This document shows, one piece after another, positions 488 through 63,711 of a DNA stretch of 64,000 nt (position 1 is its first letter; the number at the start of each line of letters is the position of its first letter). Under the pieces are notes generated by a model. It saw nothing but the letters and a program-made list of their open reading frames with translations. It had not been told where the DNA came from and did no database searches. This stretch comes from an uncultured delta proteobacterium (GTDB lineage: Bacteria > Desulfobacterota > Desulfomonilia > Desulfomonilales > Desulfomonilaceae). Made by a program: the position numbers and the translations under genes. Where the stretch lies: positions 448,001 through 512,000 of the forward strand of contig CAWBKB010000007.1 in NCBI GenBank assembly GCA_963789265.1. Direction: 5' to 3'.

Positions 488-2362
488 TTAAACTATGGTA
501 ATAACAGGAACTTTCTTCATTTCCCATTCGCCGTTCTTGTAAGTGGCGTTTGCGAACACCTTCCAGTTGGCCTCATCCATCGTCGGGAAATCGTTCCGGA
601 AGTAGTAGCCCGGCCAGCGGGTCTCTTCGCGGAAGAGAATCGTCCTGACGTGGACTTCCGCCTGCCACATTCTCTGGATGTTCTCATGGCAGCGCATCAG
701 CTCGTGCAGGCTCGAAGCAGCCAGCTTGTCGGAGTCTTCGTTGAGCCAGTTAAGGAGTTCAAGCGCCCTTTCCAGCTTCGGCTTGTTGGTCTTGAAGCCG
801 GCGGTGACCCCTGCCGCGTACTCGTCCATAATCTTCTGCAGACGGAACATGAACATCTTGGGTTTCATGAACTCCGGGTTGATGTCCGGATCGCTGGATT
901 TGGCTGCATGCTCGGTATATAGGTCCAGAGGCTTCAAGATCTGCTTCTTCAACGCCTCTACTTTAGCCGCGTCGACGTTCGGCAGGTTGTTATTGTCGAG
1001 CACGAAACGTACTATCGACTTACCGGCCGCACGACCTTCAGCATGAGATCCCGAAGAGAACTTATGGCTGGATGCGCCGGACGCGTCACCCGCGGAGAAG
1101 AGACCCTTCACTGTGGACATATATTCATAGCCCCAGAAGTACTCTTTTGGAGCCAGATCTTTGGGACCGCTCACCCACGCACCGGAGGCACCGGAGTGTG
1201 AACCGATGAAGTAAGGCTCAGAGGCTGCGATCTCGGAGGACTTCTCCTCGGGCTGGACGTTGGTGCCGGCCCAGAGAATGGCCTGGGCAATGGTCATGTC
1301 GAGGAAGTCTTCCCATGCCTCGGTTTCGAGTTCCTTCATCTTCTTCTTGTAAGCCTTCGGATCATCCTTGAGGGCCTCTGCGATCTTCTGAATGGCTTCT
1401 TCCGTTCTCATGTAGATCGGACCCTTGCCCTCGAACTCATCGAGCATGCCCAAGTAGTTACGCAAGTTGGCTGGGATCGGCTTCACTTTGCCGTAGGAGC
1501 CCCAGTTGTCCAACTCTGCCTTGCGCTCCACCATGTACTCGCCGCCGAACGCGTTGGTCGCACGGGACTTGAACAGGAGGAACCACGCGCCGACCGGGCC
1601 GTAACCGTCTTTGAAGCGGACGGGGATGAAACGCACTTCCTGGCAGGTCAGCTCCGCGCCGGCCATAAGGGTGAAGTACGTGCTGGAGCCCGAGTTCCAC
1701 GGCGGATACCACGCACGGCCAAGACCTTCACCTACGCTTCTCGGCTTGAATACGTGAACCGCGCCGCCCATGGCCGCGAGGACAGCTTTGGCCTTGAACA
1801 CGTAGAATTTTTCTTCACGAGTGCTGAAACCGACGGCGCCGGCAATGCGGTCCCCGTCCATGAGGGGAGTAGTGATGAAAACGCGCTCAAAGTACTCACC
1901 GCCGCGCTGGCTGAGAGCAGTCTTGGCCGCCTCGGCCACGATGACTTTGTAGGACTCGCCGTTGATCATGAGCTGCCAACGACCCTCATGAACAAAGTTG
2001 CCCTGCTCGTCCTTCCAGATGGGAAGACCCCATTTTTCAAAGAGATGAACAGAAGAGTCCACGTGACGGGCAATGTCATAGACCAGGTCTTCACGGGTGA
2101 TGCCCATGAGGTCGTTACGGACGTAGTTGACGTAGTCAACAACCGTGTTGTTGCCGCTGTTGATGTCCACGTACTCGTTGATGGCCGAAAGGCCCATGGC
2201 TACTGCGCCGGAACGGTCCATGGCAGCCTTATCCACCAAGGTGACCTTCAGACCGTTCTTGTTGGCCCAATAGGAGGCCTCGACTGCTGCGCCGCATGCC
2301 GCCATACCGCCGCCGCAGATCAGAATATCAGTGGTTACTTCGACGGTTTCAAAATTCGCCAT
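488..2362 (-). CDS. aprA: Adenylylsulfate reductase alpha subunit
   Basis: Motifs DRSGAVAMGLSAIN, WQLMINGESYK, GRAWYPPWNSGS, HKFSSGSHAEG, REETRWPGYY; 624 aa. Confidence 0.98.
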   Translation of the reverse strand: MANFETVEVTTDILICGGGMAACGAAVEASYWANKNGLKVTLVDKAAMDRSGAVAMGLSAINEYVDINSGNNTVVDYVNYVRNDLMGITREDLVYDIARHVDSSVHLFEKWGLPIWKDEQGNFVHEGRWQLMINGESYKVIVAEAAKTALSQRGGEYFERVFITTPLMDGDRIAGAVGFSTREEKFYVFKAKAVLAAMGGAVHVFKPRSVGEGLGRAWYPPWNSGSSTYFTLMAGAELTCQEVRFIPVRFKDGYGPVGAWFLLFKSRATNAFGGEYMVERKAELDNWGSYGKVKPIPANLRNYLGMLDEFEGKGPIYMRTEEAIQKIAEALKDDPKAYKKKMKELETEAWEDFLDMTIAQAILWAGTNVQPEEKSSEIAASEPYFIGSHSGASGAWVSGPKDLAPKEYFWGYEYMSTVKGLFSAGDASGASSHKFSSGSHAEGRAAGKSIVRFVLDNNNLPNVDAAKVEALKKQILKPLDLYTEHAAKSSDPDINPEFMKPKMFMFRLQKIMDEYAAGVTAGFKTNKPKLERALELLNWLNEDSDKLAASSLHELMRCHENIQRMWQAEVHVRTILFREETRWPGYYFRNDFPTMDEANWKVFANATYKNGEWEMKKVPVITIV

Positions 2363-2382
2363 ATCTTGGTACCTCCTAATGA

Positions 2383-2826
2383 TTACTTCTTAATTGTAGG
2401 CAGCTCTTTGAGCCGCAGAGCCTCAGGCTCATTGTACAGGCACTGGCTGGCCAGGTCTGTGGTGACTTCACCAAACCCGCCATCAGGCTTGACCTGACCT
2501 TCTGGAACCTTTCGGATGGGGAATTTGAACCGCTTCACCTGGCCGCTGCGGAACTTGACCGTCCACATGATGTCTTCGGAACCCCTCAGGGGCACCACCG
2601 ACGCTCCCATCGGAACGAAGTCGGCATAACCTCTGACGTCTATCGCCTGCTGCGGGCAAATTTTCACGCAGTTGTAGCACTCCCAGCACATTTCGGGTTC
2701 CATGTTCCAGGCTTTCATTTTTTCTTTGTCCAGAACCATCAAGTCATTAGGGCAGATGTACATGCAAGCGGTCTTGTCCTGGCCCTTGCATCCATCACAT
2801 TTTTCCATGATAACGAAACTTGGCAT
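2383..2826 (-). CDS. aprB: Adenylylsulfate reductase beta subunit (2x[4Fe-4S])
   Basis: MPSFV..KCDGCKGQDKTACMYICPNDLM and CWECYNCVKICPQQAI; SD aggagg upstream. Confidence 0.98.
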   Translation of the reverse strand: MPSFVIMEKCDGCKGQDKTACMYICPNDLMVLDKEKMKAWNMEPEMCWECYNCVKICPQQAIDVRGYADFVPMGASVVPLRGSEDIMWTVKFRSGQVKRFKFPIRKVPEGQVKPDGGFGEVTTDLASQCLYNEPEALRLKELPTIKK

Positions 2827-45187: not shown

Positions 45188-45200
45188 GGGGAGACCTGCG

Positions 45201-45409
45201 GAAACTGTCTCAAAACTATTTTGATGCCCAGAATCGTGCCACGATTCAGGCTCATTCGTATAGTCGTCGCCCTCACCCCAACCCTCTCCCTCTGGGAGAG
45301 GGCGCAGATCCAGGGCAGTTTTGCACTTCCCTCGCCCTCTGGGAGAGGGACACAGGGTGAGGGATTCGTGCTACGATTCCGACCGCTTCATTGTTTTTGA
45401 GACAGTTTC
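45201..45409. mobile_element. MITE (209 bp), TSD TGCG
   Basis: tgcg|GAAACTGTCTCAAAA...TTTTGAGACAGTTTC|tgcg. Confidence 0.92.
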
Positions 45410-45673: not shown

Positions 45674-46882
45674 ATGGTTCGGCCGGCCATTATAGATCGG
45701 TATGTCTTTCGGGAGGTGGTTGTTACCGTTTCTCTTTTGTTTTGCCGTTTTCCTCGCTGCCGGTCTTATCGCGGGTTTTCTCCCGCTTCTTCAGAAAGGT
45801 ATGGAAGCCGGCCTTGGGCTGACTCTAATTCTGTTTCAAGTCTTGATTAGCGCCCTTCCGGCCACGCTGGTGACAGTGCTGCCGCTGTCTCTGATGATCG
45901 GTATCCTGCTTGGGCTCGGGCGTATGGCAGCAGACAATGAGGTTGCAGCCATAAAATCAGCGGGCGTCTCCGTACTGCGTCTGCTTCCGCCAGTCCTATT
46001 CCTCGGTCTGATTGCCTTCATTCTCAGCCTTGTCTGCACTCTAAGTCTCATTCCCAAAGGTGTTTCGGCAGAGCGCAGGCTCATGCAAGAAGCCGTTACC
46101 CAGCGGGCCGACGCGGGAATCGAGGAACGAACGTTTCTTTGATTCGCTCAAAAACCTCATACTTTACGTCGAGGAGATTGACTCCGCTACCGGCGTGATG
46201 AGCCGAGTATTTATCAGGGAGTCTTCACAGCCGGATGAAGTCACCACAATCCTTGCCCAAAAAGGAAAAGTGATTCCCGATCCCGCGGGAAAGGCGTTCA
46301 TTTTGAACTTGCGTAACGGCACCGTTCTCAAAGAGGACAAGAGCGGCGGCTCAACCGGCAGTCTTGCTTTTGAGAGCTATATCTATCGGTACCCGCTGGC
46401 GCATGCGGGTGCGGCTAACCCCACAAAATCATTTGAGGAGATGTCCATTGCTGGAGTGCGCGGTCGAGTGCGGGCTGTTATGGCTAAGGAAACCACAGGG
46501 AATCCCGCAGAAATAGCGTATATTCATAGAGTTGACAACTTCGCCCGTATTCTCATAGCGCAACGATTCATTCATCCGCTTGCGTGCATTGCTTTGGCAC
46601 TCATAGCCTTCCCCCTGGGTGTGTTGAACATCGGGCGGAGCAGGCTGAACAACGTACCCCTGGGGTTGGTGATGATCTTCATTTATTACGCCTTTACACT
46701 TGCAACAGAACGAATGGCCCGTTCCGGCTTGGCGCCGCCGGAACTTGTGCTGCCGCTCCCACCTCTGGTTTTCATAGTCATTGCGGCTTACTTTATTCGA
46801 TGCGTTCAAATGGAGCGAATCCCGCGGCTGGCTCGTTTCTCTCCAGACCCTAATGTTGCAGGTACGGCGGAACAGGATATGA
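45674..46882 (+). CDS. lptF: LptF/LptG family LPS export permease, with apparent +1 frameshifts (~45718, ~46135, probably ~46840)
   Basis: MVRPAIIDRYVFREV / LPLSLMIGILLGLGRMAADNEVAAIKSAGVS / FDSLKNLILYVEE..RFIHPLACIALALIAFPLG, spread over shifting frames. Confidence 0.8.
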
Positions 46883-46891
46883 TTTTGTATG

Positions 46892-47113
46892 TCATTTTCT
46901 TTTCTCTATCCTGCTCTGAAGTTCCTCGAAAGAGAGGAGGTCTCCAGGATGAGCCTCATAGCTCTTAATTCTTTTGTCCAATTCGTCCAAATGGCTCTGA
47001 GGTACAGGCACGCCGGTCTCATCTGAAGCAATGCCGTCCCACAGGTTTTCCACCAACAGGATCTTTTCCGGCGCACTTAGCCGCGCAATTTCGGGAATGT
47101 GACTTACACGCAT
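46892..47113 (-). CDS. Addiction-module antitoxin component (orphan)
   Basis: LSAPEKILLVENLWDGI..ELDKRI..YEAHP. Confidence 0.85.
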   Translation of the reverse strand: MRVSHIPEIARLSAPEKILLVENLWDGIASDETGVPVPQSHLDELDKRIKSYEAHPGDLLSFEELQSRIEKRK

Positions 47114-47166: not shown

Positions 47167-49062
47167 TTATTGTTCCCGGTATTTCTTCGTCAATGCACGG
47201 ATGTCCGTCTCGGTAAACTCCACACCGTGCTCTTCCATGAGCTCCGTCTCCACTTTGAGAAGTTCTTCCAGCCTGATGTCCGCGCCGAATACCCCGATCA
47301 TCTTACCCTGTTTGTCTCTTAGGGGAGCAGAGACAGTGATGCATAAGGCTCCGGTGATTCGCGACGTAAACGGGCCTACCACATGAATCTTGCCGTCCTT
47401 GACCGGCCTGATGAACCAGGGCCGATCGGAAAAGTCTTCGTGCGGCTTGAACGCTACATATTTTGCCCGCTCGGTGATGTCGGTAATATTTTCGGTGACC
47501 TTCTTCCCCTCCATGTCCGCGACATAGCAGTATTGAATGAAGGGATACCTGCTCAGGAATTCGGTCATGGCCTTTTCCATAGTCTTTGGCTTGCTGGATC
47601 TCATCGCGGTCGTTTCGGTAAAGCGCTCCACAATCTTGAAGGCCATCTCCCCGGCAATGAGCTTCATGCGATCCCAGTCCGAGATGAAAAGTTCGGGCAT
47701 ATACCGCTTGACCAGTGCTGTGATCTCCTTGTCGGACATTGCAGTCACACGCCCGGCGTCGTATAGCTCGGTAACAATGTCATAGATCTTGGAAATGGCC
47801 GGATGGCTTTTTTCGACCTTTTCCTCCATAGGCACATCCATTTTGGTATTGATCCAATGCGCAATGCCGGCCATACCGGACTTGTCGGTAATATTGACTA
47901 CAGGCGCCTTGCCCAGAATCTTCGTGGTATCGAAGACATTATAGATTTCCTCATTCTTAAGCGCACCGTCCACATGAACGCCTGCGCTGGTCGCATTGAA
48001 GGATTTGCCCAGCAAGGGATAATTTTCAGGAATGTGGTGTCCCAACTCACGCTCGAAATATTCCGCGACCTCGGTTATGGCCAGAGTGTTCATGCCGTCG
48101 GCCTGCCCTCGAATCGACATGTATTCGATCATAAGCGCTTCAATAGGAGTGTTTCCGGTTCTCTCGCCGATGCCGAGGAGAGTGCCGTTCACGCCCGAGC
48201 ACCCGTAGAGCCATGCGTAGACCGCGTTGGTCAGAGATTTGTGAAAATCATTGTGCCCGTGCCATTCGAGCAAGTCTTCGGGGACATTGGCATCATCAAT
48301 CATGGCCCGTATGAGCTTGGGCACGCTCCGAGGCAGCGCGGCCCCCGGATAGGTGACTCCAAAGCCCATGGTATCGCAAAGTCGTATCTTGATGTCCACT
48401 CCCGATTCTTCACGGATTTCCATGAGCTTCTGGGCAAGTGGCACACAGAAACCGTAAATGTCCGCCCTGGTCACATCCTCAAAGTGGCATCTGGGCAGTA
48501 TTCCCTTTTCGAGAGTGACTCGGACCATGTCCACATATTTGTCCATTGCCTTCTTGCGATCCAATCCCATTTTGAGGAAGATATGGTAATCCGAGACCGA
48601 CGTTAAAATCCCGGTCTCTGTAAGACCCGCTGCCCTTAAATAGGACAGGTCTTTCTTGTGCGCTCTTATCCAGCCGGTAATTGAAGGGTATTGATAACCT
48701 TTGCTCCGGCAGCGCTCCAGAGCTTCGCGGTCCTTCTTCGTGTACACGAAGAACTCCGACTGCCGAATGATGCCGCGGGGGCCGGAGAGCTTATGGAGGA
48801 AATCAAAAAGTGCGGACATCTGATCCACGGTGAATGGTGGCCTGGCCTGCTGCCCGTCGCGGAACGTGGTATCGGTAATAAGGAAATTCCTGGCCGGATT
48901 AATCGGCAGTATCGCAAAATCGAAGTCTACTTTGGGCACTTCAGAGTACGGGAAAATATTTCGCAATAGGTTCGGTTCGCTCACCTCGCGGAGGGACCTC
49001 TCCTTATGAAACTTGTTGAACTCGTGATACAGAACTCCTCTTTTAGGATCCCAACTGGCCAT
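47167..49062 (-). CDS. Re-citrate-synthase-like DRE-TIM enzyme with C-terminal Cache/PDC domain
   Basis: ITDTTFRDGQQ, RCHFEDVTRADIYGF, EWHGHNDF, GIGERTGN; C-terminal DFSDRPWF..SRITGALCITVSAP..GVFGADI. Confidence 0.85.
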   Translation of the reverse strand: MASWDPKRGVLYHEFNKFHKERSLREVSEPNLLRNIFPYSEVPKVDFDFAILPINPARNFLITDTTFRDGQQARPPFTVDQMSALFDFLHKLSGPRGIIRQSEFFVYTKKDREALERCRSKGYQYPSITGWIRAHKKDLSYLRAAGLTETGILTSVSDYHIFLKMGLDRKKAMDKYVDMVRVTLEKGILPRCHFEDVTRADIYGFCVPLAQKLMEIREESGVDIKIRLCDTMGFGVTYPGAALPRSVPKLIRAMIDDANVPEDLLEWHGHNDFHKSLTNAVYAWLYGCSGVNGTLLGIGERTGNTPIEALMIEYMSIRGQADGMNTLAITEVAEYFERELGHHIPENYPLLGKSFNATSAGVHVDGALKNEEIYNVFDTTKILGKAPVVNITDKSGMAGIAHWINTKMDVPMEEKVEKSHPAISKIYDIVTELYDAGRVTAMSDKEITALVKRYMPELFISDWDRMKLIAGEMAFKIVERFTETTAMRSSKPKTMEKAMTEFLSRYPFIQYCYVADMEGKKVTENITDITERAKYVAFKPHEDFSDRPWFIRPVKDGKIHVVGPFTSRITGALCITVSAPLRDKQGKMIGVFGADIRLEELLKVETELMEEHGVEFTETDIRALTKKYREQ

Positions 49063-50874: not shown

Positions 50875-52127
50875 GATTTATCTCCTTGAAGGTAACTTAC
50901 GAGGGCGTCGAGCCTCACGGAGACCTGCTCTCGGGTCTTCATGTCGCGAACGGTAACTTCTTGGCGGTTAAGCTCTTCCTCGCCTATCATTATGACTTTT
51001 CTCGCTCCGACACGGTCGGCGACTTTCATATGTGCCTTCAGGCTCGTGGAAGAGTAACGCGCCCTCCGCCGAAATTCCGGAGGTTCTAAGCAGGTTGACC
51101 AGACTGAAAGCGGTCTGACGAGCACTCTCTCCCACTGGCGCAACGTAAGCGTCTATTGACCGAGCAAAGCGTCCGTTATCGTCCGGAATGCCCATCGAAA
51201 GGCGTTCCAAACCTATGGCAAAGCCTATACCTGACGCATCCGGACCGCCCAATTCCTTCAGAAGGCTGTCGTACCGGCCTCCTCCTCCGACTGCTTTAGA
51301 CCTCCCAAGTTCGCTGTGAATGATCTCGAACGCTGTGCGGGTATAGTAATCGAGCCCGCGCACCATTCTCGGTTCCAGCCTGTAAGGGATTTGCAGGGCG
51401 TCCAGTCCATTCTGCACCGCCTGGAAATGCTCGCGGCAAGGCGCGTCCAGACTGTCGAGGATGACCGGAGCGTCTTTGGCTATTTCCGAGCATCTCGGCA
51501 CCTTGCAATCGAGTATCCTTAACGGGTTTAAATCGTACCTTCGTCGACAATCCGCACACAGGTCATCGAGGTATTTCGAAAAGTATTCTCGGAGCCGTTG
51601 TCTATATAACGGTCTACAAACCGAGCATCCCACCGAATTAATCTCCATCATCAGTCCGGAAGCTCCGATGCTCGTCATGATCGCATACGCAGCAGCAATG
51701 GTTTCGGCATCCGTATACGGGGAATCGTCCCCCAGCACTTCAGCATCGATCTGAAAGAAACTGTCGGAATCTGCCTTTCGACGGTCTTTCCCGGCGGAAC
51801 ATCGGTCCAATGGTGTAAAGCTTCAAGATGGAATCGCGGCGCAACAGCGAATGCTCGACAACCGCACGCAAGATTCCCGCAGTCAGCCTCCGGCCTGAGG
51901 CTGAGAGATTCCCCACCGCGGTCCTCGAAAGTGTACATTTCCTTTTCAACTATGTCTGTGACCTGGCCGATGCCCCGTTCAAAGAGTTCGGTACGTTCCA
52001 TAATCGGCGCTATGATCTCCCGGAACCCGAACCGCTGGAGGCAGGCCCGAGCCGTATCCACGAGGAATGCCCACTTCGTAGTTTCCTCCGGAAGGATATC
52101 GTGGAACCCTTTGACAAGCCTGATCAT
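50871..52127 (-). CDS. hisS: Histidine--tRNA ligase, split by three apparent +1 insertions
   Basis: [22 protein letters not shown] / [16 protein letters not shown] / QIDAE..VRGLDYY..GGGRYD..GLERL / ADRVGA..IGEEEL. Confidence 0.93.
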
Positions 52128-52435
52128 CGGAAAAGTCCTTACTGCAACAGTGGCAGGAAAGTGCCCTCAACCAAATTTTTTATACTAAGTCCACCTTGTA
52201 TCGTCAGTCAAGTTCTGGACGCGTGTAACGTGACCATTCAGTCTTGTGCGGCAGTCCCGCGAGGCGCGGGACAGCCTGTCGGGGAAAACTCTTTTCCGTG
52301 GCGGGCTAGAAAGCCCACCCCACGAAGCCATCCGCTACTTCCGGCTGTAACTGAATGCTTACCGTGCAACGGCAATCATTTGATCGCGTGAGGAGTTGCC
52401 AGTTGCCTGTTATTGTGCTGGTGGGACAGGCAGGA

Positions 52436-52987
52436 TGCCTGCTCCACTACGCTTTGTCCCGCCACCTTCATATCAAGACTCTTCGTGCCCCGGAAGTTGG
52501 GTGCAACTGACCTGAGGGCCACCATGGCACCAGGTCAGTGCAGTTTTGTTGCCGACGGATTCTTAATTCCGGTACGGATCTGACGAAGCCTCCCGCGGGA
52601 GGCGGGATGGCACCCGCCTAAGTACTCCTGTTCGCAAATACCGTGACGTTAAGACCCCTGTACGGAAGAAAATTGCTTTCATGCGAGGCGCGGGACTCGC
52701 AATTACAGCAAATGGGAATGTCATTGCGAGGAGTGCAACGACGAAGCAATCTCGACTGGGACATACGTGACCGAAGTTATGAGACATCGTACTTAGGCAG
52801 GCATCTTGCCTGCTCCACTACGCTTTGTCCAGCCACCTTCATATCAGGACTCTGCGCGGCCCGGAAGTTGGGTGCCACTGACCTGTATGCCATGATGGCA
52901 CCACGTCAGTGCAGTTTCTTCGTCAACGGACACTCAAATCCGGCAAGGATCTGACAAAGCCTCCCGCGGGACGCGGGATAGCACCCG
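52436..52987. repeat. Two diverged 181-bp direct repeats (52436-52616, 52807-52987) within a REP mosaic
   Basis: Both start tgcctgctccactacgctttgtcc and end gcacccg, with constant offset 371. Confidence 0.88.
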
Positions 52988-53023
52988 GCGGCGGCGCAAG
53001 AAGGCACTAGTCCTTCAGAAGTC

Positions 53024-54716
53024 CTACGAGCGGGCAGCAGTGACAGGTTCTTTTGGCATTTCCCAGTTGCAGATAATCGTTAAGGCTTCTTCGGGGCTCT
53101 CGACCGAAGTCAGGCTCTGGACCAATTGGCGGTTTTGCGCTGCACGGCTGACCGCAGCCAGAATGTTAACCTGGACAGAAGGTGCGTCAGCAGGCGAAAG
53201 TATCAGGAAGACGAGTTCAGTGGGCTTTACAACAGATTCAACGAGCACGCCTTGGCATGTCAATCCCAGCGCCACTACCGGAGCGGAAATTCCGTCCATC
53301 CGAGCATGAGGAAACGCCACCCCTTCATTAAAGAAAGTTGACCCTTGTTCTTCCCGCCGTAGCACGGCCTTCAAAATTTCCTCAGCGTCGATTCCTTCAA
53401 CATCCTTTTGAGCGACTTCCACCAACGTCCGAAGAACCGATTCCTTCTCGACCGGCTGGTCCCAAATAACAATTCGGCGACTCGACAACAAGCTGCTCAG
53501 AACAAGTGGCCCCGCGCCAGATGGATGGCTCTTTCACAGGCTTCTTGGGTTCAGGAACTTCAGCCTCGACTCTTTCTTCAGGGGTCCGCTTGCTGCTTGT
53601 ATCGAGAACCACTATTGTAATTCCGCCGGCATTCATGATAAGGCGATCAACGACATTCTTACTCCCCAAGAGCCTTTTCCAGAAAGGGACCTCAGCGGGA
53701 CTCCCGATCACAATGTGGCCGACTCGATATTCCTTTGCAAAGTGCAGAATAGTGTCTGCTATGTCCTCACCCTTGTAAGTGAAGACCATTGCGCCCAATT
53801 GTTTTGCCAGGGTAAGGGTGCTTGACAGAATCCGCTGCGTCTGGGCATCTATCACAGTCGGTTCTTCCGAGGGAGTCTGGACGTACACCGCATACCAGTT
53901 CCGATTAAGTCGCCCGGCAAGCCGGGAAGCGTAGCGCAACAGCATCTCGCTGTTGGGGCCGCGGGAACTCAGGCAGACCATCACCTGATCCGGAGTGGCA
54001 TCGTTTCCATCTCTGGAGCTTTCACGCATCCTCAAATCGATCTGAGAGGCAAGCTCGCGAAGCGTAAGCTCCCGAAGTTTCTCCAGGTTAGAAGCCTTGA
54101 AGAAATTCGCAAGGGCTGTTTCAACACGTTCCGGAGGATAGATTTTGCCTTCCCGCAAACGTTCCTGAAGGTCTTCAGTGGTGAGATCCACGTTCACGAT
54201 CTCGTCCGCTTCGGCAATTACCGTGTCGGGCAGGCGTTCCCGGACCTTCACGTGAACGGTCTTCTCCACAGTATCGTACAGGCTCTCCAAATGCTGAACG
54301 TTCAGAGTGGTGATGACGTGTATCCCCGCGGCTAAAATATCTTGAACATCCTGATAGCGTTTGGCATTCCGGCTGCCGGGGACATTGGTGTGGGCCAGTT
54401 CATCAATCAGCGCGACCTCAGGTTTGCGAGCCAATATGGCATCAACATCCATCTCTTCTAGAATGTGGCCTCGGTATTCCTGCTTTTTCCTGGGGACAAC
54501 TTCCAGGCCGTCGATTAGTTTGGCTGTTTCGATGCGGCCGTGAGTCTCTATTAATCCCGCGATAACGTCTATGCCCTCACCCTTGAGCCGTTGTCCCTCC
54601 AGGAGCATTTGATAGGTCTTTCCCACGCCAGCGCCATAGCCAAGATAAATCTTTAGCCTGCCGCGTCGAGAGCGGCGGATCATACGCAAGAAAGTGCTGG
54701 CTCTATCTTCTGCCAT
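53024..54716 (-). CDS. kdpD: Soluble KdpD N-terminal + Usp domain, apparently fused (across a +1 frameshift near 53525) to a PTS EIIA domain
   Basis: RGRLKIYLGYGAGVGKTY, DELAHTN, TTLNVQHLESL, LRELTLR, then Usp; the other frame reads SGAGPLVLSSLLSSRRIVIW..REEQGSTFFNEGVAFPHAR. No TM or kinase domain. Confidence 0.85.
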
Positions 54717-54851
54717 AGTGACCGGTCTACACTTTGCATCAGAGTCATAGAGTCTGTGTCGCTACACTTGAATTTGGTTCTCGCATTATCCGAGTGAGCC
54801 GATATTCAGAGAAAACGTAGCCGCAGCCGGCCTGAAAAATCCAGCCGGCCG

Positions 54852-55877
54852 CTATCCCAGGGGTTCTCCATATCGCTTGCGAAGTTCGAGGTTGACTTCA
54901 AGCACGTTCACGAACTCTTCACCCGCCAGACCATACCATGGGGCTGATGCGTTTTGTTGCAAGATCTGCTCGATTTCTTTTCGAATTCCGGCCGGATCGC
55001 GGTTGAGATTCGCGGCCCATTTCGAGGCAACCCGATCAAGCTGAAATTGAGCATTCTGAAGTGTGATATGAGGATCGAGCCCTGAAGCCGAAGCCATTAC
55101 CAGATCGCCGGGGACCTTTTCAAAGTCGGCATCAGGATGGTCTTCTCGCCACATCAAACAGAAGGTAGACTGAATATCAGTGCCCGCAGCAACTGGCCCA
55201 ATCTTAGAGACAGTCTTGCCGTCAGGTCCAGTCTGAGTGATAGCGGCCGGGAATTTGCCAGGGTTTTCGTTGGAGAAATTCTCAAAGAACAGTACCGCCA
55301 AATCTGCTGCCTTAGGTTCGGGGGTGTCGGGATTCTCCTTGATCCACTTGGCCACCACGTCCGGATGCGCCTTCGCCCAAGCGTCAACGTACGCGGCATG
55401 AGTCGGGTCACTCGTGACCCATGACTGCGCAAGGGAATTGTGAAGGTCTACCCACTGAGCCACAATATGCGGTTTGCCCTGATAAATATCCTTTTGAAAC
55501 CAGCTCTCGATATCGGGTGCCACGGCCTTTCCGGCGTTGGGACCGCTTCGGTACTTCATGATAGGACCGAGTGTGCGGGCAACTCGGTCGCGCAGTTGGT
55601 AATTGGACGCAGCCAAAGCAGACGAGGATGAAGCGGAAGCGTCGTAGGAGGCTGCTGAAGGACGGGGTTGAAAGTATTCGTCCCTGGTGAATGGTTGCGC
55701 AATGAGTAGAGATCCCACCGGCTTGCCATCAGGGCCTTTCAGAATGCTGCCGTTGGCCTGAAACGGAAACACGGTCTGTCCGATTCCCCATAAAACCAAT
55801 GGATAAATCACGCAACTGATGACCACCAGCACGAACAACAGTAAAACGCTCTTGGAAAGATATCGCAACATGTTCAT
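54852..55877 (-). CDS. kdpC: K+-transporting ATPase subunit C, with large insertion
   Basis: FPFQANGS, YFQPRPSA, DLVMASASGLDPHI, VNVLEVNL; 341 aa. Confidence 0.92.
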   Translation of the reverse strand: MNMLRYLSKSVLLLFVLVVISCVIYPLVLWGIGQTVFPFQANGSILKGPDGKPVGSLLIAQPFTRDEYFQPRPSAASYDASASSSSALAASNYQLRDRVARTLGPIMKYRSGPNAGKAVAPDIESWFQKDIYQGKPHIVAQWVDLHNSLAQSWVTSDPTHAAYVDAWAKAHPDVVAKWIKENPDTPEPKAADLAVLFFENFSNENPGKFPAAITQTGPDGKTVSKIGPVAAGTDIQSTFCLMWREDHPDADFEKVPGDLVMASASGLDPHITLQNAQFQLDRVASKWAANLNRDPAGIRKEIEQILQQNASAPWYGLAGEEFVNVLEVNLELRKRYGEPLG

Positions 55878-55899: not shown

Positions 55900-58131
55900 T
55901 TAGCTAACCATACCTAAGCTTACTATTACCAGGTCGATCAGTTTGATGCCTATAAATGGCAGTACTACCCCTCCCAATCCCCAGATCAGCAGATTCCTGC
56001 GCAACAGAGCTTCAGCGCCCAGAGCCTGGTAACGAACTCCCTTGAGGGCGACCGGGATCAGGGCAGGGATGATGAGAGCGTTAAAGATCACAGCAGACAA
56101 AATGGCCGAGGTCGGTGAATGCAGATGCATAATGTCGACGACCTTCAGCCAAGGTAGAGTTCCGGCGAAAAGCGCGGGAATTATCGCGAAATATTTTGCC
56201 ACGTCGTTTGCTACGGAAAAGGTGGTCAAGGAACCGCGCGTTATCAAAAGCTGCTTCCCGATTTCTACAACCTCGATTAGCTTGGTGGGATCACTGTCTA
56301 AATCCACCATGTTGGCAGCTTCTTTGGCCGCTTGTGTCCCGGCGTTCATGGCCAGTGCTACGTCAGCCTGGGCTAAGGCTGGGGCGTCGTTGGTGCCGTC
56401 GCCCATCATTGCCACCATTTTCCCGCCCGCCTGCTCCTTGCGGATGTAAGCGAGTTTGGTCTCAGGGGTGGCCTGAGCGAGGAAATCGTCTACTCCCGCC
56501 CGTTTGGCGATTGTCGCAGCCGTGAGGGGGTTGTCACCGGTGATCATGACGGTACGAAGCCCCATCTTTCTCAGTCGCTCGAATCGTTCGTTCATGTTGG
56601 GCTTCAAAATGTCTTCAAGGACAATCACGCCGGCGATGGTGTTGTCTTCGGCAACGACCAAGGGGGTCGCTCCATCGGATGCTGCGCCATCTACAAGCTT
56701 GTTCAGTTCCTCACCCGGAACAGAGCCGCCGTTACCCCCAACAAATTTCATCACCGCGTCCGGGGCCCCTTTTCGTATTCGTCGTCCGTCAGGAAGGTCT
56801 ATGCCACTCATGCGCGTCTCCGCTGTAAACGGCACGAAGTGAGCGTCCTCCGGCACAACTACTGAACTTCCAGCTTGCTTCTCGAACAATCTTACGATGC
56901 TCTTCCCCTCCGGGGTCGCATCTGCCGCTGACGCCAGCGCAGCCAGCCCACCCACGTCGTCGGACGAATACTTTCCGACCGGCAAGAATGTTGTCGCGTT
57001 TCTGTTGCCTATCGTGATTGTGCCGGTCTTATCCAGCAGCACCACATCGATGTCACCAGCCAACTCCACGGCTTTGCCGCTCTTGGATATAATGTTGGCC
57101 TGTAGCGCCCGATCCATGCCTGCTATACCGATGGCGGCAAGCAAAGCTCCGATGGTGGTAGGGATGAGACATACTAAGAGCGCAATGAGAGTGGGGACAT
57201 CTGTGCCGAGGCTCTTGACAGGCTCTTGAATGCCCAAGAAACTCATCATGTATTGCTCGGCATTCCAGGCCATCGCCCAAAGGGGAATTACCACAATTAG
57301 GAAAACCAAGGTGAAAGCCGAAAGCACGAGAGTGAGAGCGATCTCGTTCGGGCTTCGCTGACGTATGGCGCCTTCGACTAGACCGATCATCTTGTCGAGG
57401 AACGATTCTCCGGCGCCGCTGGTGATCTCGACTTCAATTTGATCGGAGAGTAATACAGTACCCCCTGTCACACCTGATCGGTCTCCTCCTGCTTCTCGAA
57501 TCACCGGGGCAGACTCCCCGGTGATCGCAGACTCGTCGACAGAAGCGACCCCTTTGATGATGTCGCCATCACCGGGAATGGTTTGTCCCGCTTTCACGAT
57601 CACCCGATCGCCCACTTTCAAAGCTGTTGATGAAACCTCCTCGATGCCACCGGCAGCAGTTACGCGATGGGCCACAGTATCTTGACGAGTTTTTCTCAGC
57701 GACTCTGCCTGTGCCTTGCCACGGGCTTCCGCAAGGGCCGTGGCGAAGTTCGCAAAGAGCACGGTCAAGAAAAGCCACGCATCAACCCAAATAAAATAGC
57801 TTAGCGGCGCGACGCTCGCTTTTTGTCCCCATGCAGCCTCAATGATATACAAAAGCGTCAAGAAGGCCCCAACCTCGACTACGAACATCACAGGATTCTT
57901 CCACTGGGTGTCGGGTCGAAGCATTACAAATGCCTGCTTCAGAGCGGCCACCGCTGTCTCTTTCTCCAACAATGCTTTCGGCTTGACACGACGCTGCGGC
58001 CGAGGTGTCTCTAAAGATAAAGGAATCTCGTGCATAGTATCGGTGGTACCCCGTAATCTATTCATGTCGCACCCCTTTGAGCACTTGCTCCATTTCATGG
58101 TCCCTGCTTCGGACTTTAATGAGTTTTTCAT
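55900..58131 (-). CDS. kdpB: K+-transporting ATPase subunit B (start may be further downstream)
   Basis: [43 protein letters not shown]. Confidence 0.97.
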
Positions 58132-58145
58132 AAGTGATCATCTAG

Positions 58146-59973
58146 TCAGCCCCCGAATGGAATAGGTCCGAAATGCTCTGCCACCGGTCCCAATGCTGCA
58201 ACCGGCAGAAAAAGCAGGGCTCCGACAATAATGATCGTTCCGAGTAACAGGATTCCAAAGGTGAGGGTGTCGGTAGGCAAAGTTCCCAAGCCAAACGGGC
58301 TTGATTTCTTTTCCCCGAGATATGCAGCCATGGCGATCGGGGCAACAATGGGCAAATAGCGACTAAATAACATCACTAGACCCGCTGCAATATTCCAAGG
58401 AATGGCCTCCGGATTGGGATTAGGGTTGTTTGCCAAACCGTAGACCACCTGCAGTCCATCAAAAGCCGAACCATTATTCGCAGACGCCGAAGAGAAGTTA
58501 TACAGCATCTGCGAAAAGCCATGGGCGCCGGGATTGCTGACGGCTTTAAGCCCCAAGGCGGTCGCAGCGAAGAGCCCTGTGGGGAAAAGAATCATGAACG
58601 GATGGACCAATAGCGCGATCGTGGCAAGCTTCATTTCGCGAGCACCGATTTTCTTGCCCAAGTACTCAGGCGTCCGCCCGACCATCATGCCGGCCACGAA
58701 AATTGCAATAATCACGTAGATCAACATGTTGATCATGCCGACGCCTTTGCCGCCGTAGATGCAGTTCAGCCACATTCCAGTCATGGGCGACAAGGCGGCA
58801 ATCGGGTTGAGGCTATCGGCCTCCGCGTTCACGGCTCCGCATGTCACGTCTACTGTAACGGCCGCATAAGTGGCCCCTGCGGACGTCCCGAAGCGCATTT
58901 CTTTTCCTTCAAGGTTACCCAGATGCTGGTCCACCGGCAGGGACGGAACCGGCTGCTGTGACACTACCCGTTTACCGCCTGGTGCGGTCGCGCTGGGGAT
59001 TGCAAATGTTCGGGCCGGATGACTCCTCAATCCCGGGTTCGGTTTCAGCGTGTCAAAATAGACGCTCCAGAATATGGTGCCGATCATCAATATCATCATG
59101 ACCGCAAAAACCACCAAGGCATGACGCAGCCGATGGAGCATCCGCCCGTACATCAACACCAACGCGAATGGGAAAATCATCATGCACAGAGTGTTTACAA
59201 AGTTCGAAAACCCGGTAGGATTCTCGAAAGGGTGCGCTGCATTCATCCCGGTGAATCCACCCCCATTGGTGCCAAGCATCTTCATGGATTCCCAGGCCGC
59301 GATCGGTCCGACCGTTATGGTCTGCTGCTTCACCTCACCTGTGTCCGTGGTTCCCATTGCTGCCGGTTCGAGAGTCGAAACCGAGACCGTGGATTGGTAG
59401 GTCATCGGACTCCCTTGCTGAATAAAAACGAGGCTTACAATAAGAGCAACGGGAACGAACATGTAAACCACAGTCCGCCACATATCCACAAAGTAATTGC
59501 CGATCAAGGAGTCACCACGCAAAGCACGGATAATCGCAGTCAGTGCGCACAGACCTACCGCAGCAGAAATGAAAAGCATGGCAATGCCAAAGAAAATCTG
59601 GCTAAAATTCGACAGAACCTGCTCGCCCGAATAATGCTGGAGGTCAGTATTGGTCATGAACGATGTTACGGCTTGGAATATGGTGCTGGGGAAAATCAAC
59701 CCCTTACCACCAGGATTCAGCGGCATCCACGGCTGGATTGCCAAAACCACATAGCCGTAAACGAACAGCAGAAACGTTAAAGACGAGCAATGAAACGGTA
59801 TATTGCTTCCAGTTTTGAGGGCCGCTGTCCAGGCGTTTTTCTATCCAACCAAAGACCGGCAAAGGCCGGTACTTTCCTTCCATGATCCAGGTCATGTAGC
59901 GACTCAATGGGAATGCCACCAGCGTCGCCGTGACAAGAATCGCCAATGGAAGAATCCATGTCTGTATGAGCAT
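58146..59973 (-). CDS. kdpA: K+-transporting ATPase subunit A, +1 frameshift in the homopolymer at 59772-59774
   Basis: QNWKQY..LLVFNV / LLFVYGYVVLAIQ..TNTDLQHYSGE, LGTNGGG, EGKEMRFG, GRTPEYLGKKI, NNGSAF. Confidence 0.95.
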
Positions 59974-60016: not shown

Positions 60017-60100
60017 TCAAAACCATTCCGGACGCACAAGGGTCACGACTAGATAAACGAACACAAAAGCCGCCACGGCCGCCGTCACATAGGTCAACAT
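60017..60100 (-). CDS. kdpF: KdpF small subunit
   Basis: MLTYVTAAVAAFVFVYLVVTLVRPEWF (YL...L.RPE.F signature), upstream of kdpA. Confidence 0.92.
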   Translation of the reverse strand: MLTYVTAAVAAFVFVYLVVTLVRPEWF

Positions 60101-60117: not shown

Positions 60118-60213
60118 TTATATTTTCTCGCATGCTTTCAGAAACAAGAATATAAGCCCCATTGATGCGAGGCCCAAAAGAAATGTCGCTAGTAGCCAAA
60201 TTTCAAGATTCAT
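60118..60213 (-). CDS. 31-aa single-TM peptide upstream of kdpF
   Basis: MNLEIWLLATFLLGLASMGLIFLFLKACEKI; SD GAGGAGG; start overlaps the kinase 3' end; below the ORF-track cutoff. Confidence 0.75.
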   Translation of the reverse strand: MNLEIWLLATFLLGLASMGLIFLFLKACEKI

Positions 60214-62053
60214 TTAAGGCTTCCTCCTCGAAAATACGATCGGCGCGTTTGAGAGAAAAGGTAAAGGTGCTTCCTTGAGTTTCCCGGCTTTCGGCAGTAA
60301 TTGATCCGCCATGCGCCTCCACGATCTCTTTTGCAATAGCAAGTCCCAAACCGATACCCGATTGAGTGTCCTGGTCGGGAATCCTAAAAAATTGCTCGAA
60401 AATTGTTTGGAGATAGCGTTCCGGTATGCCCTTGCCGGTGTCGGACACAGAAAAATAAACATATTTTTCGTCAGCCTTCGCGGAGAGAGTCATCATACCG
60501 CCCGGGTCGGTGTACTTCAAAGCATTGGAAAAGAGATTCGCAAAAACATGCGTCACACGCGTCTGATCGGCCCAGACTTCAGGCAAATCGTCAGGCAGCT
60601 CCATATTTAAGCTTACACCGCAATCCTGGCACCCACTTCGGAAAGGTTCTACCGCGTCCAAGGCCATGTCGTGAGTAGACACCGTTCGGAAATCCATGTG
60701 TGCCTTTCCCGCTTCGATCCTGCCTATATCCAACAAGTCTTCCAGGATCCTGTGCAGCCGTTCGGCATCTTCTTCAGCCGCAATCAGCACCTCAGCCTGC
60801 TTTTCACTCAATTCCCCTAAATCCTCTTCAAGAAGCAAGTGAATCGCCATCCGGACCGACGTGAGGGGGGTTTTTAACTGATGAGACACTGTGGAAATTA
60901 CCCCTCGCTTCAAATCTTCCTGCTGTCGTTGCTGGGTTATGTCTGATAGTATGATCATAACAGCCATTGCTATTTTTTCTCTGTCCAAAATGGGCACAGC
61001 CTTTGGCCGGAAATATCGTTCATCCCCGTTAATGAAATGTTGAATGGGAGGCTGGTTCCCGTTCGGTTCGACCGGCACACCGTTCTTGAGGGCTTTGTTG
61101 AACAGGCTCATTAGCCAATCAAGCGAGAGGCTCTGAATGTCAGTATTGCGTCTGAGGCCAAAAGCGCTTGCAGCTATCTCGGTAGCAACCTGCACCCGTC
61201 CATTTCGGTCCACTACTGCTACAGCGTCCGGCAGATTATTGAACGCCTGCTGCACGCTATACTGGATTTGAGCCAATCTGGCCTCTCGAGTGCGTCGGAC
61301 CTGACGAAGGCTCTCTGCCATGGAGTTGAAGGCCTCCGACAGTTGGCCAATCTCGTCCCTCGAATCAGTCTTGACAACCAGGTCCAGATTTCCCGCTTTG
61401 ATGTCGTTTGCCGACTCGATGAGACGGGTGATCGGTTTGAGAATCCATCGTCCCGTGAAAAATATGAAGCCGCCGGCCATAACAGCCCCGATCACCAGTA
61501 GAAAATACATTTGCCGTTTGGCTGAGGCTGCGCGATGCCGCGCACGATTGTTGGCCCCCCACATATTCTTCTGGTTCATTTGAAGGATGTAGTCAGCCGT
61601 AGTGTTGATGTCATCGAACAGAGGAAGCAGTTCGGTGGAATAACTCTCGAACCTTGCGTCGACGGTCAAATTTGCATTTGTCGCATCCTGGATCTTCGAT
61701 TTATATTGTGTGAAGAGATCTTGGAGGTGGTGTGCTTTATCACCTTCTCCAGGAACACTAATATTGTTCAGCTCCACTTCAAGGGCCTTTTCGAAGTCCG
61801 ATTCGCTAGCGCGAATTTGCTTCATCCCTTCCTGATCGTGCCCAAGCAGCCGGAACAATACTCCGTTATTTATACGCTCCAGCGCTTCTTTCATTTGCTG
61901 GCATGCGATCACGCTGCGATAGTTCTCTCGCAGAATAACATCAATGGAATCCCCCAGTTGGGAAAGAAGACTCACGCTCTGCATGCCGACAAGAACCATG
62001 ATGACCAGCAGAGCCCCGAATCCCAACGAGAGTTTTTGCCGAAGACTGAGCAC
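60203..62053 (-). CDS. Membrane sensor histidine kinase (helical sensor, HAMP, PAS, HisKA, HATPase; KinB-like)
   Basis: ENYRSVIACQQMKEAL, DEIGQLSEAFNSMA, SHQLKTPLTS, NLFSNALKYT, DTGKGI, GLGLAI. Confidence 0.93.
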   Translation of the reverse strand: MLSLRQKLSLGFGALLVIMVLVGMQSVSLLSQLGDSIDVILRENYRSVIACQQMKEALERINNGVLFRLLGHDQEGMKQIRASESDFEKALEVELNNISVPGEGDKAHHLQDLFTQYKSKIQDATNANLTVDARFESYSTELLPLFDDINTTADYILQMNQKNMWGANNRARHRAASAKRQMYFLLVIGAVMAGGFIFFTGRWILKPITRLIESANDIKAGNLDLVVKTDSRDEIGQLSEAFNSMAESLRQVRRTREARLAQIQYSVQQAFNNLPDAVAVVDRNGRVQVATEIAASAFGLRRNTDIQSLSLDWLMSLFNKALKNGVPVEPNGNQPPIQHFINGDERYFRPKAVPILDREKIAMAVMIILSDITQQRQQEDLKRGVISTVSHQLKTPLTSVRMAIHLLLEEDLGELSEKQAEVLIAAEEDAERLHRILEDLLDIGRIEAGKAHMDFRTVSTHDMALDAVEPFRSGCQDCGVSLNMELPDDLPEVWADQTRVTHVFANLFSNALKYTDPGGMMTLSAKADEKYVYFSVSDTGKGIPERYLQTIFEQFFRIPDQDTQSGIGLGLAIAKEIVEAHGGSITAESRETQGSTFTFSLKRADRIFEEEALNES

Positions 62054-62080: not shown

Positions 62081-62097
62081 AGCAACCTCCATGCCAA
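62081..62097 (-). promoter_or_regulatory. Sigma-54 promoter for the kinase-kdp operon
   Basis: - strand TTGGCATGGAGGTTGCT (GG-N10-GC), 27 nt upstream of the kinase start. Confidence 0.85.
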
Positions 62098-62352: not shown

Positions 62353-63711
62353 TCAAATCCTGTATTGCTTACGCCTGCGCCAAAGCGTGGCCTGGTCTAT
62401 TCCAAGTATTTCCGCAGCTTCCTGTAGAGATTTCGTCGAGGCCAACACACGCCTAATGTGCTCCTCCTCAATTTTTGCCAGATTGACAGGATCTCCGAGT
62501 TTAACAGCGGCAGTGCTTTGAGAAATTCTCTCTGGCAAATATTCAACACCAACGCGATCTGTCCTGCACAATATGGCTGCCCGTTCGACAACATTGCTTA
62601 ATTCCCTGACATTCCCCGGCCATTCGTATGCCCTGAGCGTTTCCAGGGCATCCTCCGCGAACCCTTGGAAGTCTCGACGGTTCTTTCGGCCAAAGAAAGC
62701 CAGGAACCGCTCCGCCAAAAGGGATACATCCTCCGTCCTCTCGCGTAAAGGAGGAATCTCAATCTGGATGACGTTCAATCTATACAGCAGATCTTCTCGG
62801 AAACGCCCCTCCCGTACCGCATTTTCCAAGTCTATGTTGGTGGCTGTTATGATCCGGACATCGGCTTTTCGTGTAATCGTATCGCCCACGCGCCCGTATT
62901 CACAATCTTGAACGAAGCGTAGAAGTTTGGGTTGAAGCGGCAATGGCAAATCGCCGATCTCATCCAAAAAGAGAGTTCCTCCCTCACACATTGCTATGCG
63001 TCCGGGATAATCTCGAATTGCCCCGGTGAATGCGCCCTTGGCGTGTCCGAAAAGCTCACTTTCCAACAACTCCAATGGAAGAGTCGGGCACGAAATGACC
63101 CCCATAGGTTTTTCAGACCGATTGCTCCAATAATGAATGGCTCGCGCCAGTGCGGTCTTGCCTGTACCGCTCTCGCCTCGGAGCATGACTCTGGCATCGG
63201 AGGTCGCAACTTCGCGCGCAAGATTCACTACTCGCTGCATTGCCGGGCTGTTGCTGGAGAAATCCGCTTCCGGGATTGACCTGCCCAGTTCGTCCTGGAG
63301 GGCGGTAACCTTCTGTTCCAATCGTCGAACTGCCGCCACTTTACCAACAACCAGATTCACCTGGGCTGGTGTAAAGGGCTTTGGAATATAGTCCGTAGCT
63401 CCGCGACGCATAGCTTCCACCGCGGTGCCAATCGAGGAGTAGGCCGTTATCACCACCACTTTGAGCCACGGGGCTGAGGCTAGCAGCGAGGGAATCAAAT
63501 CCAAGCCGTCTTCGGAACCGAGCCGGAGATCGACGAAAGCCAAGTCAAAAGAGCGACGTGCAGCTTCCGCTACGGCATCCTGAAAATTACTGACTGCAAT
63601 GACCGTGTGGCCTCTGGTTTCGAGACAAACGGTTAAGGTTTTACGAATGTTCACCTCGTCATCCACAATCAGGATGCTGAGGGGTGGTGATGTGATCTTC
63701 GGTTCAATCAT
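62353..63711 (-). CDS. Sigma-54-dependent response regulator (AlgB-like)
   Basis: REC (DLRLG.EDGL, KPFTP), GESGTGKT, ESELFGHAKGAFTGA, WPGNVREL, ILGIDQATLWRRRK. Confidence 0.95.
   Translation of the reverse strand: MIEPKITSPPLSILIVDDEVNIRKTLTVCLETRGHTVIAVSNFQDAVAEAARRSFDLAFVDLRLGSEDGLDLIPSLLASAPWLKVVVITAYSSIGTAVEAMRRGATDYIPKPFTPAQVNLVVGKVAAVRRLEQKVTALQDELGRSIPEADFSSNSPAMQRVVNLAREVATSDARVMLRGESGTGKTALARAIHYWSNRSEKPMGVISCPTLPLELLESELFGHAKGAFTGAIRDYPGRIAMCEGGTLFLDEIGDLPLPLQPKLLRFVQDCEYGRVGDTITRKADVRIITATNIDLENAVREGRFREDLLYRLNVIQIEIPPLRERTEDVSLLAERFLAFFGRKNRRDFQGFAEDALETLRAYEWPGNVRELSNVVERAAILCRTDRVGVEYLPERISQSTAAVKLGDPVNLAKIEEEHIRRVLASTKSLQEAAEILGIDQATLWRRRKQYRI

Follow-up and report, generated by a model that had tools for sequence, protein, structure and literature searches.

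A KdpD-Usp protein fused to a PTS EIIA domain, encoded beside kdp genes in an uncultured delta proteobacterium

The DNA analyzed here (the window) is a stretch of 64,000 nucleotides from an uncultured delta proteobacterium of the family Desulfomonilaceae (assembly GCA_963789265.1, contig CAWBKB010000007.1, positions 448,001 to 512,000). At its positions 53024..54716, on the minus strand, lie two overlapping open reading frames (ORFs) that are one gene for a soluble three-domain protein, in which the N-terminal domain of KdpD (KdpD_N) and a Usp domain are followed by an EIIA domain of the phosphoenolpyruvate (PEP)-dependent phosphotransferase system (PTS). The fusion is real, since single-ORF homologues of the same KdpD_N-Usp-EIIA architecture exist in large numbers, and three strong domain matches together with recurrence in hundreds of genomes are far beyond chance. 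Taking the locus as a whole, we read it, with a probability of roughly 0.55, as encoding one soluble product that would act as a PTS-gated serine kinase of the pump subunit KdpB, the break between the two frames being an assembly error.

Domain content and occurrence of the fused gene

The upstream frame (53397..54716, minus strand) encodes 439 residues, of which 17-226 form the KdpD N-terminal P-loop domain (PF02702, 309.5 bits against a cut-off of 26.1, profile positions 1-210 of 210) and 245-360 the Usp domain (PF00582, 27.1 bits against a cut-off of 24). The same part matched the structure of a KdpD N-terminal region (PDB 2r8r) with an E value of 1.7e-67, and it provides the single strong PF02702 match of the genome. 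A Pfam scan of this ORF gave no match to transmembrane (TM), GAF, HisKA or HATPase domains; after the Usp domain come the start of a variable linker and, ahead of the stop at 53397, about 40 codons that are out of frame. Neither of two more specific KdpD families fits: the full-length sensor kinase KdpD (NF007793) scored 364.3 bits against a cut-off of 1123 and aligned only over profile positions 12-383 of 895, and the KdpD-like non-kinase potassium sensor (NF038185) scored 368.7 bits against a cut-off of 550 (positions 8-342 of 373). The EIIA frame (53024..53533, minus strand), which encodes a PtsN-like PTS_EIIA_2 domain, is shifted by +1 and shares 95 bases with the KdpD-Usp ORF. Counted from a nominal TTG start at 53491 it is an ORF of 155 residues (53024-53491; within it lies the sequence RREEQGSTFFNEGVAFPHAR) that scored 76.9 bits with PF00359 against a cut-off of 27 (positions 4-141 of 144). 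Sequence inspection revealed no recognizable ribosome-binding site before this TTG, and the frame stays open for 14 further codons upstream of it, to 53533, where a TGA stop (53534-53536) closes it. The Pfam matches thus bear out an initial annotation made from the letters and the ORF list, which had described KdpD and Usp domains with no TM, GAF or kinase part, then a linker and an EIIA domain whose frame is open upstream of its nominal start.

All 8000 candidates scored in a homology search with the KdpD-Usp ORF were relatives (so that there are at least 8000), and of the 120 best matches, 114 had 521-576 residues and contained PF02702 as well as PF00359. P0001, the closest homologue, has 563 residues and is 97% identical. 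An uninterrupted full-length frame was present in 15 of 40 related genomes, including five of the six of the same genus; in the sixth (G002) the gene lies in three pieces. We then used the EIIA part alone (alignment A1) as a query against one genome per species and obtained 217 relatives, the best 80 of which were retained. A single frame ran from residues 1-5 to at least residue 551 of P0001 in 67 of these loci; six were cut by a contig end, and seven had frame breaks whose position varied, the KdpD_N-Usp part adjoining upstream in every case. In all 80, either a KdpD_N-Usp part stood immediately ahead of this EIIA type or the contig ended there, and in 66 of them, from several phyla, kdp genes stood directly upstream of the fused gene. 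Judged by record titles, the carriers include Desulfomonile, metagenome-assembled genomes labelled "delta proteobacterium", Aminicenantes, Syntrophorhabdus (among them the isolate S. aromaticivorans UI), Krumholzibacteriia, Deferrimicrobiaceae, Terriglobales and Hydrogenedentes, that is, several phyla in all, and the intact frames span about 550-600 codons. When 300 genomes were sampled evenly across the phylum, 23 rows showed a full-length match, seven of them flagged with 1-2 stops, while other genomes of the sample carried short KdpD_N-Usp forms and full-length KdpD. A profile of the EIIA part, run against 1.84 billion representative sequences, returned 59 matches at E values up to 1e-30, the best mostly of 100-390 residues; this library holds no genomic context and says nothing on the existence of stand-alone EIIA forms. 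The initial annotation had set its fusion against two separate genes with an independent EIIA start, and the orthologues turned out to be single-frame KdpD-Usp-PTS_EIIA_2 genes. The architecture is already present in public databases under automatic names (NCBI calls family members "PTS sugar transporter subunit IIA"); it is widespread, conserved and apparently unstudied.

In the window itself the frame is broken within a zone at 53505..53530 (minus strand) inside the variable linker of about 30 residues between Usp and EIIA, a zone that includes a GGGG run (minus strand, 53510-53513). In a scripted test, deletion of any single base of this zone produced one frame of 563 codons, the length of P0001, with 524-527 of the 563 residues identical to it. 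In L003, the closest relative, whose DNA is 92% identical across 232 bases, the interval 53510-53522 is shorter by exactly one base, and the extra base that had been placed near 53525 by the initial annotation was thus located correctly to within about 10 bases; around the break the linker DNA is locally divergent between the two. We consider a homopolymer-type assembly error in the linker very probable, because the orthologues are intact and the assembly carries a general burden of such errors. The only hisS gene of the genome (50968-52127, minus strand) occupies two overlapping frames (profile positions 1-70 and 103-308); single bases at 51064, 51761 and 51885 are absent from a relative's contigs. 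This split, too, is probably an assembly error. An lptF/LptG permease gene (45702-46968, plus strand) consists of two overlapping ORFs (profile positions 6-145 and 135-351), and relatives' contigs lack one base at 46134 and another at 46836; kdpA is frame-broken near 59772. A real split is disfavored for the same reason, since breaks in the only hisS, lptF/G and kdpA genes would not be tolerable in a living cell.

Public contigs from four runs were compared with the window, one run (X1) being near-identical to it and the others representing relatives that are 90-95% alike. The relatives in runs other than X1 are in frame at the break site, and in those of run X2 one base is missing, at either 53520 or 53522. 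At 59772 all four runs lack one base. Another base, at 54720, four positions upstream of the start codon of the fused gene, is missing from all three covering runs, and X1 is among the runs that lack both. Across 52950-53555 the X1 contig has 605 letters for 606 positions, i.e., one gap somewhere in this interval. Several observations nevertheless weigh against an error at the break: (i) X1 shows no deletion at 53520 or 53522 (0 of depth 4.1), nor at the hisS sites 51064, 51761 and 51885 (depth 2-3.1), although its depth is only 2-5 and it may be the source of the assembly itself and hence not independent, (ii) the contig comparison does not pinpoint the extra base, and (iii) the linker has more than its share of breaks, with about 5 out of roughly 13 (the window, L094, L100, L116 and one of two in L047), which could mean that split forms are tolerated. 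The verification in reads that the initial annotation had suggested exposed extra bases of the window at 54720 and 59772 and, for the break itself, pointed both ways. A search of metagenome contigs for the linker flanks separated by a variable gap gave no matches, and thus no independent copy of this species' linker.

Could the extra base belong to the strain? A true +1 insertion would leave either a KdpD_N-Usp protein with a junk tail plus an EIIA protein begun at TTG 53491, or a pseudogene. This would agree with the two frames of the window's sequence as given, with the X1 contig at 53520 and 53522 and with the recurrence of linker breaks in other assemblies (L094, L100, L116), and three of ten inspected short EIIA representatives from a library clustered at 50% identity have 153-164 residues and no Usp remnant (P0130, P0136, P0137). 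Yet the other seven begin inside Usp or carry linker or other sequence before EIIA and resemble fragments or split forms, the TTG lacks a ribosome-binding site, the same-genus genomes are intact in five of six cases, the same assembly breaks other single-copy genes, and the window has bases at 54720 and 59772 that every covering run lacks; we regard such an insertion as improbable. In the inspected loci L094, L100 and L116 no convincing EIIA start codon with a ribosome-binding site was found, and L116 would require two shifts within 60 bases; we infer that these linker breaks are errors in a homopolymer-rich stretch and not natural splits. A programmed +1 ribosomal frameshift, yielding a short and a long product, has the geometry in its favor, as a +1 shift is needed and the frames overlap. 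It can nearly be dismissed, however, because the closest relative is in frame here, the linker sequence varies among relatives, 67 of the 80 loci have one frame while other assemblies break at different places, and no conserved shifty motif is seen, so that the conservation test fails. The window's copy is most likely mis-assembled, in a region with several such errors.

Candidate kinase and phosphotransfer sites

The N-terminal domain of KdpD is an atypical serine kinase that phosphorylates KdpB at Ser162 and inhibits KdpFABC (Silberberg et al. 2024, PMC11018627). The isolated domain is active as a kinase, and KdpB is also phosphorylated in vitro by a short KdpD/Usp protein from Deinococcus geothermalis, which cyclic di-AMP (c-di-AMP) stimulates (PMC11018627). 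For the Escherichia coli protein, residues G36/K37/T38/W39, D109/E110 and R190 are described as essential, with D109/E110 needed for KdpB phosphorylation (PMC11018627). We assigned their equivalents in the window's protein by an offset of 4, a mapping made in this analysis, and compared them across 46 full-length members of the family. A Walker A-like motif, G26-x5-G32 K33 T34, followed by Y35, is encoded at 54615..54641 (minus strand); G26, G30, V31, G32, K33 and T34 were invariant and Y35 was conserved in at least 90% of the sequences. The Walker B pair D105-E106 (54399..54404, minus strand; D109/E110 in E. coli) was invariant in all 46, as was R186, which corresponds to the adenine-binding arginine R190. 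On the side of the substrate, the KdpB of the window keeps the sequence ITGESAPV, with the TGES motif, as do 14 of 14 related loci. As to the Usp domain, a c-di-AMP-binding motif (A/G/C)-x-S-x-S-x2-N-(Y/F) has been published (PMC8214093); the family reads C-L-S-S-R-G-P-N-S at this place, which by our mapping fits three of the five specified positions, and the genome has two diadenylate cyclase genes.

The EIIA part retains its putative phospho-accepting histidine, whose codon lies at 53306..53308 (minus strand; H62 of the 155-residue ORF, H470 of the 563-residue protein). This histidine was invariant in 14/14 and 46/46 sequences, its motif GVAFPH aligns with the active site of EIIA_2, and the RE..ST motif was invariant as well; the initial annotation had called the RE..GST and A.PHAR motifs of the window's protein intact. 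With a profile of the EIIA part, the best PDB matches were PtsN structures (1a6j at an E value of 6.3e-15; also 3urr, 4gqx and 2a0j), compared with 2.9e-5 for mannitol IIA. The domain nevertheless falls outside the PtsN equivalogs TIGR01419 (52.3 versus 138.7 bits) and NF008145 (42 versus 221 bits), and a canonical PtsN is encoded elsewhere in the genome, in an rpoN-hpf-ptsN context (C5:67914-68342). The genome further contains one EI of 611 residues without a GAF domain, an HPr gene beside it and an HprK gene, while no EIIC was found in this genome of 95.6% completeness. Because EI, HPr, HprK and PtsN are present and no EIIC was found, the PTS of the host is probably purely regulatory. HPr and EI are encoded by overlapping genes of one operon (L016, G000:C5:686119-689493), and a fragment of a DDE transposase lies directly upstream of them.

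From these residues the following scheme may be drawn. The EIIA domain would receive phosphate from PEP via EI and HPr, and its phosphorylation would gate the serine kinase of the same chain; the fused protein would then set pump activity post-translationally by phosphorylating the TGES serine of KdpB, whereas a kinase/regulator pair encoded nearby would set kdp transcription through sigma-54. The Usp domain may add a nucleotide input, and in this way the PEP, carbon and nitrogen state of the cell would bear on potassium uptake. The enzyme activity, the phosphotransfer and the gating are all predicted from conserved sequence. The single-chain coupling itself, in which the phosphorylation state of the EIIA histidine would directly gate phosphorylation of the TGES serine and so switch the P-type ATPase off, is advanced tentatively, as somewhat less probable than its opposite. 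Several points count against the scheme. The tryptophan of the E. coli motif (W39) is replaced by tyrosine (Y35). An AlphaFold2 model of the whole 563-residue protein, built from 46 aligned sequences, reached a predicted local distance difference test score (pLDDT) of 66 and a predicted template modeling score (pTM) of 0.35, with only the EIIA part confident and no contact between EIIA and the kinase domain readable. Finally, the genomic company of the fused gene fits a transcriptional role as well or better: its linkage with histidine kinase and response regulator genes is conserved, and a short paralogue sits between genes of these two kinds.

This last point leads to the main competitor, according to which the fused protein would be mainly an accessory sensor of the co-operonic histidine kinase (60203-62053), forming a three-component system through which the PTS controls kdp transcription, in the way that PtsN acts via KdpD in E. 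coli; its KdpD_N-Usp part, its EIIA domain or both would bind that kinase and modulate phosphorylation of the sigma-54 regulator. In a gene-order comparison of 14 related loci, counted only over loci long enough to reach each gene, the histidine kinase was directly upstream of kdpA in 12 of 13 and the regulator upstream of the kinase in 11 of 11, so that both accompany the kdp genes and the fusion; a histidine kinase was directly upstream of the fusion in 3 of the 80 loci. Three loci of another genus (g36; L117-L119, from G048, G125 and G089) hold a short KdpD_N-Usp gene, about 70% identical and devoid of EIIA, between histidine kinase and sigma-54 regulator genes, with no kdp gene in the stretch fetched; on other contigs, G089 also has the fused form and G125 a full-length KdpD-type match. 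Moreover, E. coli PtsN binds the HisKA region of KdpD (PMC9239096) and the co-operonic kinase has a HisKA domain, while Desulfovibrio vulgaris DVU3336 and DVU3335 have been interpreted as a single kinase divided between two ORFs (Rajeev et al. 2011, PMC3333781). On the other hand, a pure scaffold would not require an invariant Walker B pair and an adenine-binding arginine, and the co-operonic kinase is without a KdpD-like TM or GAF part, so that the known contacts cannot simply be transferred to it. We hold a chiefly sensory role to be rather unlikely. It may coexist with serine-kinase activity, and a dual role, pump-directed and transcriptional, may exist by analogy with E. coli KdpD. The initial annotation had the fused protein link PTS phosphorylation to this separate kinase; the kinase is indeed conserved in the operon, which keeps that proposal alive, but the serine-kinase reading is more direct because the KdpD N-terminal domain is itself an enzyme (PMC11018627).

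Operon and surroundings

On the minus strand the order is an NtrC-type regulator, a sigma-54 site, the histidine kinase, a 31-codon ORF, a kdpF-like ORF, kdpA, kdpB, kdpC and the fused gene. The regulator (62353..63711, minus strand) is a sigma-54-dependent response regulator with REC, AAA+ sigma-54 interaction and HTH_8 domains. A sigma-54 promoter-like site, TGGCAT-N5-TTGCT (62081..62096, minus strand), lies about 30 bases upstream of the start of the kinase gene, and in 12 of 12 regulator-kinase spacers, those of the window and of 11 loci, a site with at most two mismatches was present at the corresponding position. Two other placements were tried and rejected: between the histidine kinase and kdpA there was one weak match in 14 regions, and upstream of the regulator gene two weak matches in 11 regions. 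The fused gene thus appears to be the last gene of a conserved operon transcribed from a predicted sigma-54 promoter, with the gene of an NtrC-type activator just upstream. The kinase (60203..62053, minus strand) is a membrane protein with 4HB_MCP, HAMP, PAS, HisKA and HATPase_c domains and is not of the KdpD type. A hydrophobic ORF of 31 codons (60118..60213, minus strand) overlaps its stop codon and precedes a 27-codon ORF (60017..60100, minus strand) that was assigned as kdpF-like from its position and hydrophobic sequence; the former could represent another small membrane peptide encoded in the operon. The frame-broken kdpA (58146..59973, minus strand) lies in two pieces, 59704-59973 and 58146-59750, and its profile match begins at position 75. 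It is followed by kdpB (55900..58131, minus strand), in which the codon of the TGES serine, the equivalent of E. coli Ser162, is at 57511-57513, and by an unusually long kdpC (54852..55877, minus strand) encoding 341 residues, about 150 more than usual, that match the KdpC profile in two stretches.

The pump genes differ among relatives. KdpA is 87-98% identical to that of the window in three loci (L021, L024 and L028) and 35-39% identical in ten others; one locus (L034) ends inside kdpB. Because the KdpABC sets diverge into two very different kinds while the fused gene, the kinase and the regulator remain similar throughout L021-L034, the pump cassette seems to have been exchanged among relatives.

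Just downstream of the fused gene, a direct repeat of 190 bases is present in two copies (52427-52616 and 52798-52987) that are 85% identical. It is built of modules of 40-57 bases and has 59 blastn matches across the genome; in unrelated metagenomes this region shows depth spikes and many loose ends. A comparable hotspot at 45190-45320 has 92 matches, and transfer RNA and Rfam scans of 44.8-53.1 kb found nothing. Elsewhere in the window, an ORF of 631 residues (47167-49062, minus strand) combines an HMGL-like (aldolase/synthase) domain with a C-terminal domain resembling Cache/PDC sensors, an unusual pairing, and at 488-2826 (minus strand) the beta subunit of adenosine 5'-phosphosulfate reductase (AprB) adjoins a flavoprotein of 624 residues that we take to be AprA. 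This pair suggests a sulfate reducer or a sulfur oxidizer.

Significance and comparison with known systems

No description of a KdpD-EIIA fusion was found in the literature searched, which did not cover subscription journals outside it; the main text of PMC11018627 has no occurrence of "PTS" and PMC13104625 none of "fused" or "fusion". A supplementary table of PMC11018627 files proteins of Desulfomonile tiedjei (551 residues) and Syntrophorhabdus aromaticivorans (581 residues) as "KdpD domain, Usp domain" and, as far as it was available, does not mention EIIA. The C-termini of these entries are not visible in the table. Both lineages carry the fusion, and the present findings correct the classification of proteins from two fusion-carrying lineages that were filed as plain KdpD-Usp. 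It was not until 2024 that KdpD was recognized as a serine kinase, and a regulator of its short soluble forms is known in one case only, c-di-AMP (PMC11018627). That the fusion is conserved and occurs in at least 217 species-level genomes argues for a second regulatory input on this kinase, which could be tested directly in vitro. Control of potassium homeostasis by the nitrogen-related PTS is debated, and a 2026 review speaks of discrepant models (PMC13104625). If our reading is true, PTS control of potassium uptake has, besides the known transcriptional branch, a post-translational one via the N-terminal KdpD kinase, and the cultured carriers D. tiedjei and S. aromaticivorans would offer a ready biochemical and structural model.

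The nearest known counterpart is the D. geothermalis protein, DgKdpD (PMC11018627). Both are soluble, combine the Walker A/B domain with Usp, lack TM, GAF and histidine-kinase parts and are encoded with kdp genes; the protein described here differs in having an additional C-terminal EIIA domain on a flexible linker. Stimulation by c-di-AMP is reported for DgKdpD, whereas here the published binding motif is matched at only three of its five specified positions. D. vulgaris Hildenborough has, in DVU3334-3339, a K+-sensor/UspA protein (DVU3336), a histidine kinase (DVU3335) and a regulator (DVU3334) that controls its own kdp operon, and the available part of that paper mentions no EIIA on DVU3336 (Rajeev et al. 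2011, PMC3333781). The window presents the same cast of kdp genes, separate sensor/Usp protein, histidine kinase and regulator. We take DVU3334 to be sigma-54-dependent as well; its gene is presumably the last of the operon, whereas the window's regulator comes first, ahead of the sigma-54 site. With PtsN (TIGR01419/NF008145; 1a6j, 3urr, 4gqx, 2a0j) the EIIA part has its fold family and active-site motif in common, but it scores far below the equivalog cut-offs, and the host has its own canonical PtsN beside rpoN and hpf.

The initial annotation had regarded the fusion as a "Rosetta stone", i.e., as the known contact between EIIA(Ntr) and KdpD encoded in one protein. This does not hold strictly, because the part of KdpD that PtsN touches is the HisKA/transmitter domain in E. 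coli and the GAF domain in Sinorhizobium fredii (PMC9239096, PMC13104625), both of which belong to the C-terminal half of KdpD that is missing here. The fusion, as read from its domains, supports a functional link between a PTS EIIA and Kdp and not the known interface within one chain. As in the KdpD-PtsN systems of E. coli and rhizobia, an EIIA-Ntr-type domain would be tied functionally to Kdp, and the histidine that decides between its forms is conserved; in those systems PtsN is a separate protein that meets a full-length membrane KdpD, whereas the fused protein has its EIIA domain in one chain with the N-terminal half.

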